Positions 190 through 4,484 of a DNA stretch of 64,000 nucleotides are shown here, piece by piece. Origin of the DNA: Dictyostelium discoideum (lineage: Eukaryota); contig CM000152.2 of NCBI GenBank assembly GCA_000004695.1, positions 3,936,001 to 4,000,000 on the forward strand, in the 5' to 3' direction. Under the pieces are notes generated by a model. That model did no database searches and had not been told where the DNA came from. It saw only the letters and a program-made list of their open reading frames with translations. A program made the position numbers and the translations under genes. The stretch's first letter is position 1, and each line of letters begins with the position of its first letter.

Positions 190-624
190 AAGAATTGTAA
201 GTTGGTAAAATTATTTTTTGAATAGTTGGTGGTATTGTCAAAAATGATATTATTTTTTTTTTTACCACAGTATATTATATTTTTTATATAAAAAATTGTG
301 GGTTGGGGGTATAATGTTGTCATAATTATATAAATTGTACACTTGAATAATTTTTTTTAATATAATTATTCTATTGATGTATAAACTGTCAAAAAAAGTA
401 TTACCATATTATAAAAACAGGAAACAAATAATATTAATTATTAAATTTTAATATCAAATTTTTTGAAATTATACTTTTTTGGTAAAACTACAATTTATTA
501 TTTATTGAAAAAAGGTGATTTATTTTTAAGGTTTTTAAAAAAAAAAAAGATATAAATAAAAAAAAATTAAAAAATTTATTAATCACTTATCAATAAAACA
601 TTAAATTATAAATCAAAAAATAAA
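190..624 (+). promoter_or_regulatory. conserved hssA-family upstream module (type A), copy 1; homologous copies at 2375..2818 and, more diverged, at 60395..60900 and 62805..63200
   Basis: Blocks AAGTTGGTAAAATTATTTTTTG..GTTGGTGGTATTGTCAAAAATGATATT, TTGTGGGTTGGGGGTATAA, GTATAAACTGTCAAAAA, AAAAAGGTGATTTATTTTTAAGG and ATAAAATGACAC occur in the same order upstream of copies 1, 3 and 5. Confidence 0.5.
296..310 (+). promoter_or_regulatory. G-box/CAE-like element TTGTGGGTTGGGGGT
   Basis: G/T-rich island inside the conserved upstream module. Equivalent elements at 1348..1365 (AGAGTGGGTGTGGGGTTT), 2469..2484 and 3591..3609. They resemble GBF-type G-boxes used by developmentally regulated Dictyostelium genes. 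Confidence 0.35.
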
Positions 625-988
625 ATGACACTTTTTTGTAAGGATTTTATTATTATTTTATTAAATTTATTAAAAAAATGAAAACTAATTAATTTATAAT
701 TATTAATCATTAAAAGCTTCAATCTCATCAATTTCAAATCCAATGACAAGTTCAAAATCCAGTATAGCATCATTTGGTAGTGGAACAAGTATGGGTTCAA
801 ATTCAATTGCATGTGGTGGTGGTTGTGGTGGTGGAAGTGGTGGTATTCTTGGTTTAGGTTTAGGATTAGGATTAAATTTATTTGGAGGTTCTAGAGGTGC
901 TTGTGGTGGTAATAGTGGATCTGGTAATCCTGGTAATGGCCCATGTTCTGGTGGTAAATGTTGTGGAGGTCCATGTTGTGGAATTTAA
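625..988 (+). CDS. hssA/2C/7E-family small Gly/Ser/Cys-rich protein, copy 1 (2 exons: 625..637, 717..988)
   Basis: 13-nt first exon ATGACACTTTTTT followed by GTAAGG donor; ~79-nt AT-rich intron ending AAAAG. Exon 2 is in frame (T+CT) and gives [44 protein letters not shown]...CCGGPCCGI*. Same architecture in all 5 copies. N-terminal MTLFSSISSIS and G/S/C-rich body match my recollection of the Dictyostelium hssA/2C/7E family. Confidence 0.75.
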
Positions 989-1060
989 AATATTTTAAAA
1001 AATATAAAATATAAATATATATTCGAAATTACTATATATGTTATAATACTTTATTAAAAA

Positions 1061-1077
1061 ATTGGCGAATTTCCAAT
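1061..1077. promoter_or_regulatory. conserved 3'-flank palindromic element ATTGG-N6-CCAAT
   Basis: ATTGGCGAATTTCCAAT lies 70-170 nt downstream of the stop of hssA copy 1. Related copies at 2092..2107 (ATGGTGAATTACCAAT), 3259..3275 (ATTGGCGAATTTCAAAT) and 4429..4444 (ATGGTTGATTTCCAAT). Contains a CCAAT box. Confidence 0.35.
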
Positions 1078-1244
1078 CATATTAAAAACAAAAATAAATT
1101 AAATCTTTTTGTTTTTAAAAATTTTTAACAAAATGAAATTTAACTATTCTATATTAATTTTTTAATTTTCTGAATTAATGATTCTAAAATTACAAGAGTA
1201 TTTTCATTCCTTTACTATTAATATTAAAATTATAGCTTGAAATT

Positions 1245-1647
1245 TTAATTTGGTTAAAATTATTGATTTAATTTAAAGGTTAGTGGTATTGTTATTAACG
1301 ATTTTTTTTTTTTAATCAAATAAAAAATTCTTTTTTTAAATAATTGTAGAGTGGGTGTGGGGTTTATTATTTTAATTATAATCGTTAACGTTTTTATTTT
1401 ATTCAAAAACAAAAATTGATCTTATTAATAATAAAAATATTTTTCTAATAAATGTATAATCTGTTAAAAAGAGTATATTCATCTAATAAAAATCACAAAA
1501 TGTAGAATATTAATTATTTTAATTTTAGTTTAACTTTTTGACTTTGTACTTTTAGCAATTCCCTAAAAAAAAGCTATAAATAAAATTTAAATTAAAAATT
1601 AATTTATCACTCTTCAGTAAATTATTAAATTATTCATCAAAAATAAA
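1245..1647 (+). promoter_or_regulatory. conserved hssA-family upstream module (type B), copy upstream of gene 2; paralogous module at 3485..3910
   Basis: GGTTAGTGGTATTGTTATTAACGAT..TAATTGTAGAGTGGGTGTGGGGTTTATT..ATCGTTAACG and AGTATATTCATCTAATAAA..GCAATTCCCTAAAAAAA are shared between 1245-1647 and 3485-3910. Confidence 0.5.
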
Positions 1648-2030
1648 ATGACACTTTTTTGTAAGGATTTAATATTATTTAATAATTAATAGTTTTTAAG
1701 AAAAGAAAAAAAAAAATTAAACTAATAAATTAATTTTTATTAAAAGCTTCAATCTCATCAATTTCAAATCCAATGACAAGTTCAAAATCCAGTATTTCAT
1801 CATTTGGTAGTGGAACAAGTATAGGTTCAAATTCAATTGCATGTGGTGGTTGTGGAGGTGGAAGTGGTGGTATTCTTGGTTCAGGTTTAGGTATAGGTTT
1901 AGGTTTGGGTTTAGATTTAACTGGAGGCTCTAGAACAAGAGGGTCATGTCGTGGTAATGGCGGATCAAGCAATCCTGTTAATGGTCATGGAGGCATGGGA
2001 GGCGGAAATGGTTCATGTTGTGGAATTTAA
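1648..2030 (+). CDS. hssA/2C/7E-family protein, copy 2 (exons 1648..1660, 1747..2030)
   Basis: Same micro-exon (ATGACACTTTTTT|GTAAGG) and acceptor (AAAAG|CTTCAATCTCATC) as copy 1. Product [43 protein letters not shown]...SCCGI*. Confidence 0.75.
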
Positions 2031-2743
2031 ATGTTATAAAATATATATTCAAAACTATTAATAATATAATAATACTTTATTTAAAATAAAAATGGTGAAT
2101 TACCAATAGTGTTTATATAAAAATATAAACTTTAATTTATTTGTATTTTCTATTTATCTATAAATAAACTCAATAAATAAAATTGAACTTTAAAAATGAT
2201 TTATTAAAATAAAATTTTCAATGAAAATTTTAAAAAAAGTGATATAATAATTTATTGATTATATCAGTTTAAGTGTTCATTATTGTTTATTATATTTAGA
2301 AGTGATATTTTTAAGATTATTTTCATTCCATCTCTAATTAAAATTAATCTATTTAAAAAAAAAAAGATTTGTAAGTTGGTAAAAGTTATTTTTTGTAAAG
2401 TTGGTGGTATTGTCAAAAATGATATTATTTTTTTTCAACACAATAAATTTTATTTTTTATTTAATTAATTTGTGGGTTGGGGTATAAAGTTGTTATAATT
2501 TATTAATTGTACACTAGAATTAATATTTTAATTTAATTTATTTTTAATTAAATTTAATTTTTCTATTAATGTATAAACTGTTAAAAAAAGTATTATCATC
2601 TAATAAAAACACAAAACAAATAATATTAATTATTAAATTTTAATGTAAAACTTTTTGAAATTACTTTTTTGGTTAAATTACAAATTATTATTTATTGAAA
2701 AAAGGTGATTTATTTTTTAAGGTTTTCTAAAAAAAAATAAGAT

Positions 2744-2774
<31 letters not shown>

Positions 2775-2818
2775 TATTCACTCATCAATAAAATATTAAA
2801 CTATAAATCAAAAATAAA

Positions 2819-3189
2819 ATGACACTTTTTTGTAAGGACTTAATATTATTTTAGATTATAAAGTTTATAATTATAAAAAAAAAATGAAAACTAATTAATT
2901 TAAATTAATAATTATAGCATCAATCTCATCAATTTCAAATCCAATGACAAATTCAAAATCCAGAATATCATCATTTGGTAGTGGAACAAGTATGGGTTCA
3001 AATTCAATTGCATGTGGTGGTGGTTGTGGAGGTGGAAGTGGTGGTATTCTTGGTTTAGGTTTAGGATTAGGATTAAATTTATTTGGAGGTTCTAGAGGTG
3101 CTTGTGGTGGTAATAGTGGATCTAGTAATCCTGGTAATGGCCCATGTTCTGGTGGTAAATGTTGTGGAGGTTCATGTTGTGGAATTTAA
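2819..3189 (+). CDS. hssA/2C/7E-family protein, copy 3 (exons 2819..2831, 2918..3189)
   Basis: Micro-exon plus intron (acceptor TATAG|CATCAATCTC). Protein ~95% identical to copy 1. Part of the second 2-gene duplication unit. Confidence 0.75.
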
Positions 3190-3910
3190 AATATTAAAAA
3201 ATTATTAAATATATATACATTCGAAACTACACTAAAAGTAATAAGACTTTATTTAAAAATTGGCGAATTTCAAATTATATTAAAAAAAATCAAAATAAAT
3301 TAAATCTTTATTACCATATTATTATGTTAACTCTTTTGCAATGATTGATTATATAATATTTATTAAAATTAAAAAACCAACTATTGAATATATCAGTTTG
3401 ATATTTAATTATTGTTCTGAACTTAATGATTTATAACATCTTAAAAATATTTTCATTCCTTCAATATTAATTATTTAAAATTAGATTGAAATTGTGACCT
3501 GATTATTATTTATCTAATTTAAAGGTTGGTGGTATTGTTATAAATGATTTATTTTTTAACCACTAAAAATTTCTTTTTTAAAATAATTGTAGATTGGGTG
3601 TGGGGTTTTATATTTAATGATAATCGTTATCGTTTTTATTATTTTAAAAAATAAAATTTGATTTTATAATTAAAAAAAAAAAAAATTTCCAATAAATGTG
3701 TTAACTTTTAAAAAAAGTATATTCATCTAATAAATAACAAGGTAGAATATTAATTATTATAATTTTTAATTCAACTTTTTGATATTATACTTTTATTTTA
3801 CAAACATTTTTGCAATTCCCTAAAAAAAAACCTATAAAAAATAAAAAATAAATTTTAAATTCTATTCATCACTCATCAGTAAATTATTAAATTATAAATC
3901 AAAAAATAAA

Positions 3911-4261
3911 ATGACACTTTTCTGTAAGGATTATTTAATAATTTATAGTTTTAAAAAAAAAAACAAAAAAAAACTAATAAATTAATTATTATCAATAGCA
4001 TCAATCTCATCAATTTCAAATCCAATGACAAGTTCAAAATCCAGTATTGCATCATTTGGTAGTGGAACAAGTATGGGTTCAAATTCAATTGCATGTGGTG
4101 GTGGTTGTGGTGGAAGTGATGGTATTCTTGGTTTAGGCTTAGGTTTAAGTTTAGGTTTAGGTTTAGGTTTAAATTTAACTGGAGGTTCTAGATCTAGAGG
4201 TGGTTGTGGTGGTAGTAATGGAAGTATGGGTGGAGGAAATGGTTCATGTTGTGGTATTTAA
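3911..4261 (+). CDS. hssA/2C/7E-family protein, copy 4 (exons 3911..3923, 3999..4261)
   Basis: Micro-exon ATGACACTTTTCT|GTAAGG; acceptor AATAG|CATCAATCTC. Protein most similar to copy 2. Confidence 0.75.
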
Positions 4262-4484
4262 AATAATTAAAAAATTATAAAAATATATATACATTAAACA
4301 TTACTATAAATGTAAAATTACTTTAATTAAAATAATCCAAAATGATAAAAAAAAAATAAACTAAATTAAGGCTTTTTTTTTTTTTATAAATTTGATATTT
4401 TATTTAAATTTAATCTTTATTACTAAAAATGGTTGATTTCCAATTTATTAAATAAAATAAAATAATTTATATATATATTGTTTT

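Follow-up and report, generated by a model that had tools for sequence, protein, structure and literature searches.

The probable right-hand end of a longer hssA/2C/7E gene array in Dictyostelium discoideum: micro-exon genes, old two-gene units and exon-restricted gene conversion

The hssA/2C/7E family (also sigN or HssA/B-like; PF05710) is restricted to group-4 dictyostelids (PMC8067170). Vicente et al. 2008 described 96 sigN-like genes (PMC2257962), Kin et al. 2018 reported a family of nearly 100 genes (PMC6198379), and family members are described as cAMP-inducible or as expressed in prestalk or cup cells (PMC2257962, PMC6198379). Here we analyse five members encoded in a 64-kb stretch of Dictyostelium discoideum AX4 DNA (the window; 21.7% G+C overall, from a chromosome of 6.36 Mb), four of which lie head-to-tail at its left-hand edge. 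The closest described systems are the sigN Group 1/2 clusters of D. discoideum chromosome 2 (PMC2257962), which belong to the same family and whose genes share the layout found here: a 13-nt exon-1 open reading frame (ORF), a short intron and a single second exon. Their products are 87–89 amino acids (aa) long and Gly/Ser/Cys-rich, their promoters carry GBF-like G boxes, candidates for which are present here too, and the clusters likewise grew as a two-gene unit was repeatedly duplicated. The chromosome-2 unit, however, is an inverted gene pair sharing a palindromic intergenic promoter, whereas the genes of the window run head-to-tail from promoters of their own, and the window proteins are only ~29–34% identical to SigN1 according to the table of Vicente et al. 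(PMC2257962).

Three further systems bear comparison. hssA (DDB_G0280999), the founding gene and a high-copy suppressor of STATa, and the cAMP-inducible complementary DNAs (cDNAs) 2C and 7E belong to the same PF05710 family and have the same gene structure (PMC6198379); the published quantitative PCR primers for hssA matched neither the window nor the two related loci introduced below at up to 4 mismatches, and hssA is not in the window. The cup-cell-specific hssA-like clade of Kin et al. 2018 consists of closely related tandem members with a 13-bp first exon and very strong late expression (PMC6198379). SRCP1, an 88-aa serine-rich chaperone that suppresses polyglutamine aggregation, is assigned by Wu et al. 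2021 to the same large class of small proteins under developmental control in Dictyostelium (PMC8554618); the likeness is one of class placement, and a chaperone activity of the window proteins would be pure conjecture. Publications of 2008 and 2018 already describe the family, its 13-nt first exon, its clustering, its pair-wise duplication and its G-box promoters, and the AX4 annotation includes these genes, so that the discovery value of the locus is small and the finding correct but ordinary.

The array, its two-gene units and their age

Scanning the window for ATGACACYTTTYTGTAAG with at most one mismatch, we found exactly five matches, all on the (+) strand, at 625, 1648, 2819, 3911 and 60913, where 0.01 would be expected by chance. 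Joining the 13-nt exon at each match to the first suitable AG acceptor gave intact ORFs for all five copies. Copy 1 (c1) has its exon 1 ORF at 625–637 (ATGACACTTTTTT, encoding M-T-L-F plus 1 nt), a 79-nt intron of 9% G+C at 638–716, and exon 2 through the stop codon at 717–988, for a spliced product of 94 aa. Copy 2 (c2) follows with exon 1 at 1648–1660, an 86-nt intron at 1661–1746 and exon 2 at 1747–2030 (98 aa); copy 3 (c3) with exon 1 at 2819–2831, an 86-nt intron at 2832–2917 and exon 2 at 2918–3189 (94 aa); and copy 4 (c4) with exon 1 at 3911–3923 (ATGACACTTTTCT), a 75-nt intron at 3924–3998 and exon 2 at 3999–4261 (91 aa). The dispersed copy 5 (c5) occupies 60913–61278, with exon 1 at 60913–60925 (ATGACACTCTTTT), an 81-nt intron at 60926–61006 and exon 2 at 61007–61278 (94 aa). 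All five introns read GTAAG...AG and contain 9–11% G+C, against 38–42% in exon 2; their lengths of 75–86 nt differ from the ~80–95 nt proposed in an earlier reading of the window made from its letters and a mechanical list of ORFs (the sequence-only reading). All five spliced products begin MTLFSSISS, and a tblastn search of the window returned no family copy beyond these five.

The assignment of these genes to the hssA/2C/7E family, which the sequence-only reading had proposed, was borne out by protein comparison. All five spliced proteins matched PF05710 at 50–77 bits (cutoff 21.4) over profile positions 1–89/90, and c1, c2 and c4 were 100% identical to the AX4 HssA/B-like proteins 49 (HSL49, Q54UK9), 50 (HSL50, Q54UK8) and 52 (HSL52, Q54UK6), respectively; identity of three encoded proteins to AX4 RefSeq/UniProt entries also accords with the AX4 origin of the DNA. 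The c3 product is 95% identical to HSL49, and the best database relative of the c5 product is HssA/B-like 64 (HSL64), at 66% identity. In a collection of 15 billion proteins c1, c2 and c4 were present as AX4 entries, and the exact spliced c3 and c5 proteins were not found; either HSL51 and the c5 protein were not loaded, or the deposited models differ. When 1.84 billion representative proteins were searched with a profile, the spliced c3 and c5 proteins being left out of the input, only 11 matched, as would be expected of a family confined to group-4 dictyostelids, and the named database matches all came from Dictyostelium (discoideum, cf. discoideum and firmibasis). Additional file 1 of Vicente et al. 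2008 lists chromosome 3 genes that fit the five models, those for c1–c4 being consecutive: DDB0203954 (94 aa, intron 78) for c1, DDB0203955 (98 aa, intron 85) for c2, DDB0203956 (94 aa, intron 85) for c3, DDB0203957 (91 aa, intron 74) for c4 and DDB0218277 (94 aa, intron 80) for c5. The protein lengths are equal and the tabulated introns are each 1 nt shorter than ours. On length and order, as distinct from sequence, c1 is thus probably sigN118, c2 probably sigN112, c3 probably sigN117, c4 probably sigN116 and c5 probably sigN138. A literature search for hssl49–52, Q54UK6–9 and the DDB identifiers found no paper.

To place the four clustered genes in context, we compared the window with the corresponding loci of D. 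discoideum assembly GCA_054859385.1 (L001) and D. cf. discoideum assembly GCA_054859205.1 (L002). Window positions 1–5073 are colinear with L001 8288–13525 at 88.6% identity. In L001 there are 11 head-to-tail copies, followed by an Erg28 gene on the opposite strand; in L002, 9 copies lie between a 2-hydroxyacid dehydrogenase gene and Erg28. The same Erg28 flank closes the array in all three genomes, the window gene lying at 4485–4946 on the (−) strand (PF03694, E=3e-12). At the other end the window opens within the array: positions 1–190 are already inter-unit spacer, and position 1 corresponds to L001 8288, 124 nt past the stop codon of a further upstream copy. Within AX4 itself, HssA/B-like 46 (92 aa) shares a 90% cluster with c1 and carries an accession number four lower, and DDB0203946–53 directly precede the four c1–c4 models in the 2008 table (PMC2257962). 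We therefore take window positions 1–4463, comprising HSL49, HSL50, (HSL51) and HSL52, to be where a longer array of head-to-tail genes ends on its right-hand side. The self-contained array of four described in the sequence-only reading is not supported, the apparent number of four arising where the window edge cuts the array.

The clustered copies fall into two types with different C-terminal tails, c1 and c3 being type A and c2 and c4 type B. Repeat unit 1 (1–2215, (+) strand, its left edge cut by the window start) consists of a spacer, c1, a second spacer and c2, and repeat unit 2 (2216–4463, (+) strand) holds c3 and c4, where the array ends. In a self-alignment of the window, 3–2215 matched 2140–4463 as a single high-scoring segment pair at 77.9% identity, while the ~1.06-kb offset gave only 68%. 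The A copies and c5 also carry a ~50-nt promoter block that the B copies lack. The single segment pair spanning both genes, together with the type-specific tails and promoter block, indicates that the duplicated unit was the ~2.2-kb pair and not the single gene, as the sequence-only reading had concluded. That reading had also likened c1 to c3 and c2 to c4. The members of each pair are indeed mutual closest relatives in upstream, intron and coding sequence, but the two resemblances are far from equal: coding identity is 98% for c1–c3 and 81% for c2–c4, gaps counted. Over the whole array, the order of C-terminal types is C, A′ four times, A, B, A, B, A, B in L001; in L002 it is C, A′ four times, A, B, A, B.

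We next asked how old this arrangement is. The sequence-only reading took the pair duplication to be recent, and the coding sequences at first sight agree, as c1 and c3 share 98% identity and differ by only 2 synonymous changes, and the 2.2-kb period is clear. Each of c1–c4, however, has a positional counterpart in both L001 and L002. Neighbour-joining trees were built for the 600 nt ahead of each gene, for the gene, and for the interval from −600 to 150 nt past the stop; in these c1 grouped with L001 8959, c2 with L001 10001 and L002 13575, c3 with L001 11218 and L002 14785, and c4 with L001 12309 and L002 15911, with bootstrap values of 76–100% for these groupings in the −600 to stop+150 tree; only the L002 counterpart of c1 was an exception. 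Over ~1 kb, paralogue identity is 0.877 for c1–c3 and 0.794 for c2–c4, at or below the 0.88–0.94 of AX4–L001 orthologs, and the proportion of synonymous differences (pS) between c2 and c4, 0.20, is about equal to the pooled AX4–L002 ortholog value of 0.21. The A-B-A-B arrangement therefore predates the divergence of AX4 from the two other D. discoideum-group genomes. Given these counterparts, the flank site patterns described below and the continuation of the array past the window edge, a self-contained four-gene array formed by recent duplication of one A-B pair is very improbable, though slightly less so than the other alternatives we considered.

What then makes the A copies look so young? 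The c1 and c3 coding sequences differ at 7 sites, for a pS of 0.029, whereas each differs from its own L001 ortholog at a pS of 0.13–0.17. We counted site patterns in the quartet of c1, c3, L001 8959 and L001 11218. In the upstream, intron and downstream sequence, 84 sites supported orthology and 1 supported within-genome grouping; in exon 2 the counts were 2 and 6 (Fisher p=2.5e-7 against flanks and intron). For the B copies, exon 2 gave 11 orthology sites and none of the within-genome kind. Such counts are the signature of patchy gene conversion that is confined to the A copies and, within them, to the coding exon, at roughly 766–952 of c1 on the (+) strand, with 2967–3153 of c3 as partner. 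This conversion accounts for the 98% coding identity of c1 and c3 and for the apparent recency of the duplication. The whole-gene tree, intron included, groups orthologs and hides the event, which becomes visible only by segment, in synonymous sites and site patterns.

Coding constraint and the protein products

For hssA itself it has been suggested that such loci act mainly as RNAs, the ORF being incidental: a frame-shifted hssA construct still suppressed a partially active STATa mutant (PMC6198379), and the lack of a predicted fold and of knockout phenotypes would suit such a role. We found, against this, that the pooled ortholog ratio of nonsynonymous to synonymous substitution (dN/dS) was 0.16 for AX4–L001 and 0.23 for AX4–L002. 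Indels are frequent in the Gly-Leu repeat, yet every copy stays in frame; in 25 of 25 copies (5 in the window, 11 in L001 and 9 in L002) the spliced ORF is intact and encodes 91–99 aa, each retained indel being frame-preserving, while the introns are far less constrained in length than the exons. Low dN/dS and kept frames show that the ORFs are constrained as proteins under purifying selection, a result that bears on the report of suppression by frame-shifted hssA. A mainly RNA-based role for the loci of this array is accordingly very unlikely, slightly more so than a recent origin.

The products are 91–98 aa long and contain 29–31% Gly, 20–28% Ser, 5–9% Cys, 3–4% Lys+Arg and no Glu, so that all five are, like the family at large, small (<120 aa), Gly/Ser/Cys-rich and Lys/Arg-poor. 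They have no hydrophobic N-terminus, and their (GL)n centre is weakly hydrophobic. An AlphaFold2 model had a mean predicted local distance difference test score (pLDDT) of 43 and a predicted template modelling score (pTM) of 0.10, with no secondary structure. The coiled-coil label attached to PF05710 and to the NCBI product name does not suit these proteins, with 30% Gly, no Glu and no helices in the low-confidence AlphaFold2 model; a coiled coil is unlikely because composition alone argues against it, and the name is historical.

We also noted that the window array copies end in CCGI (977–988, 2019–2030, 3178–3189 and 4250–4261). A Cys at position −4 occurs in 24/24 array copies of the three genomes (for example CYGI in L002 14785), c5 being the exception among the 25. 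More speculatively, this Cys of the ...CCGI tail may be a CaaX-like lipidation site. As a family feature a CaaX-like tail was rejected: other members end CGCN, GNSC, HSC or SCSC, so it is not general.

As to function, published knockouts of 13 sigN genes and six other members gave no phenotype, and antibody data for family members hint at adhesion or matrix roles. Our working view is that the products are redundant, abundantly expressed, low-complexity developmental proteins.

The 13-nt start exon

That all five copies have a 13-nt start exon followed by a phase-1 intron, as the sequence-only reading had it, is supported both by the pattern scan and by the intact spliced ORFs. Its degenerate pattern for the start exon fits four copies; in c5 the exon departs from it at position 9. 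Its further remark that intron-blind ORF calling mis-starts every gene proved accurate: in the mechanical list Met14 is the start of c1–c4, and that of c5 is a TTG at 61021. This two-exon layout, a 13-nt ORF and one short intron, is found in 5/5 window copies on the basis of sequence and conservation. Across the 25 copies the introns are 72–103 nt long, with lengths evenly distributed modulo 3, and the donor is GTAAG throughout, save for one GTATG (the L002 copy with its ATG at 14785), with AG as acceptor. The independent annotation of L001 begins four orthologous genes at exactly the predicted ATGs. The same exon structure has been described at family level, with a 13-nt exon 1 in 89/96 family genes and a cDNA-to-genome comparison for sigN1 (Vicente 2008, PMC2257962), and a 13-bp first exon in Kin et al. 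2018 (PMC6198379).

An alternative is that the genes are unspliced and start at the internal Met14, giving 78–85-aa products, with the upstream ATGACAC...GTAAG a conserved non-coding element. An in-frame ATG is present at codon 14 of all five copies, as this would require. The 39 nt from acceptor to Met14 are, however, in frame, stop-free and conserved; variation in the micro-exon is codon-like, 14/17 differences among the 25 copies falling at third codon positions; the Pfam profile alignment begins at residue 1; the annotated proteins contain the N-terminal residues ahead of Met14; and the 13-nt exon is present in the published cDNA-to-genome comparison of sigN1 (PMC2257962). A start at Met14 is highly implausible, and spliced genes with a 13-nt start exon remain the preferred models.

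Existing gene calls at the related loci are sparse. In L001, 5/11 copies are called (region 1–13000), one of them as the fused 175-aa model P0012, and in L002 1/9 copies is called as a gene (region 6500–16300). Recent eukaryotic annotations thus overlook most micro-exon copies of this array, and the practical value of the start exon is one of annotation, every member being mis-started by intron-blind ORF calling.

Promoters, neighbours and meaning for the family

Upstream of all five genes we found a common, ordered set of blocks. The first, box 1, is the 22-nt TGGTGGTATTGTYAWAAATGAT, located on the (+) strand at 227–248 (c1), 1281–1302, 2402–2423, 3527–3548 and 60446–60467. It has exactly 5 matches in the window against 0.02 expected, one per gene and ~370–470 nt before the ATG, and it is conserved at equal relative positions in L001 and L002. 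About 70 nt downstream of box 1 is a G/T-rich box, at 297–310 on the (+) strand for c1 and starting at 1352, 2471, 3595 and 60446 for the others, which fits the GBF consensus (T/G)G(T/G)G(T/G)G(T/G) (PMC2257962). Each copy is preceded by such a box (KGKGKGK), −290 to −350 relative to the ATG for c1–c4 and −467 for c5; the density of KGKGKGK upstream of the genes is only 3.3 per kb versus 1.1 per kb elsewhere in the window, and we regard the boxes as putative GBF sites. A TGTATAAACTGT.AAAAA block comes after the G/T box and ahead of a TATAAATA box ~70 nt before the ATG, which, as read from the aligned sequences, is on the (+) strand at 551–558 (c1), 1575–1582, 2743–2750, 3833–3840 and 60809–60815 and is a candidate TATA box. 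Past the genes, the partly palindromic motif AAWTGGYGAATTWCCAAT (TGG-N7-CCA) is found on the (+) strand at 1060–1077, 2090–2107, 3258–3275 and 4427–4444, the four best matches in the window all being in the array, 60–166 nt past each array stop codon. It is seen in L002 too, and could signal the 3′ end or belong, as a distal element, to the promoter that follows.

A separate element, TTGTAAGTTGGTAA, is conserved immediately ahead of box 1 in type A and in c5 (198–211, 2370–2383 and 60397–60410) and is degenerate in type B. It resembles a splice donor, yet stands ~420–515 nt before the ATG.

The shared promoter architecture, and the 95–97% identity of the N-terminal 120 nt of coding sequence, could be read as the mark of four independent single-gene duplications whose alternate copies then converged, but this is barely credible beside the continuous 2.2-kb alignment through both genes and both spacers, the indels specific to c1/c3 and to c2/c4 (the ~50-nt promoter block and the C-terminal tails) and the third A-B unit upstream in L001.

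Elsewhere in the window, adjacent 287-aa ORFs at 46008–46871 and 47103–47966 on the (+) strand both match class I S-adenosylmethionine (SAM)-methyltransferase domains (Methyltransf_25/11) and form an apparent tandem paralogue pair. ORFs at 27633–28346 and 28509–29636 on the (+) strand fit RAB3GAP2_N profile positions 1–92 and 124–419 and are probably one intron-split gene, and an ORF with an Ependymin_amoebozoa domain lies at 22898–23659. A tRNA-Ala (AGC) at 57886–57958 on the (−) strand is the only Rfam or ARAGORN match in the whole window. About 320 nt downstream of c5 is a (TTTA)n microsatellite of ~27 units (61596–61706), flanked by poly-T and poly-A runs.

We consider it highly probable that the locus is best explained as an array end of micro-exon genes, built of old A-B units and modified by conversion in exon 2. 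Each gene would be transcribed from its own promoter, with the 22-nt box, a GBF-type G/T box and a TATA box, and its mRNA would be made by removal of one 75–86-nt phase-1 intron after the 13-nt coding start. The product would be a protein of 91–98 aa with no confidently predicted fold and about 30% Gly, 20% Ser and 5–9% Cys. The array would have grown by unequal crossing-over of a ~2.2-kb unit of one type-A and one type-B gene and, after the genomes diverged, exon 2 of the two A copies would have been homogenised by gene conversion, with c5 at 60.9 kb a fifth, more divergent family member. By analogy with the literature on the family, expression may be GBF-dependent and post-aggregative (prestalk or cup-cell), and the role redundant, possibly in matrix or adhesion.

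Several points weigh against this explanation. The larger array in AX4 is deduced from the L001 and L002 loci and from the order of accessions and identifiers, and the splice junctions of the five genes are predictions drawn from conservation and from annotated or published models. The links of c3 to HSL51 and of c5 to sigN138 are likewise suggested by lengths and consecutive identifiers. In the trees, c1 and its positional counterpart in L002 (12381) do not form a clean group, probably reflecting conversion in the L002 genome, and exon-2 conversion by itself does not fully account for the unequal divergence of the two pairs (0.88 for c1–c3 versus 0.79 for c2–c4 over ~1 kb). Finally, the family members that have been knocked out showed no phenotype.

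Beyond what was published, the locus adds an old arrangement conserved in three genomes, conversion limited to exon 2 in the A copies, purifying selection and a family-specific 22-nt promoter box, all of which are useful for studying the evolution or expression control of this expanded group-4-specific family. The near-identity of the A proteins may be kept by exon conversion while divergence in the promoters, introns and 3′ flanks proceeds as fast as between orthologs. Taken with a dN/dS of ~0.2, this leads us to a tentative proposal, which we hold to be possible but rather unlikely: dosage or sequence uniformity of the A protein would be selected, the family would act as proteins and not as RNAs, and the family would have a developmental enhancer of its own in the 22-nt box with the G box ~70 nt downstream.

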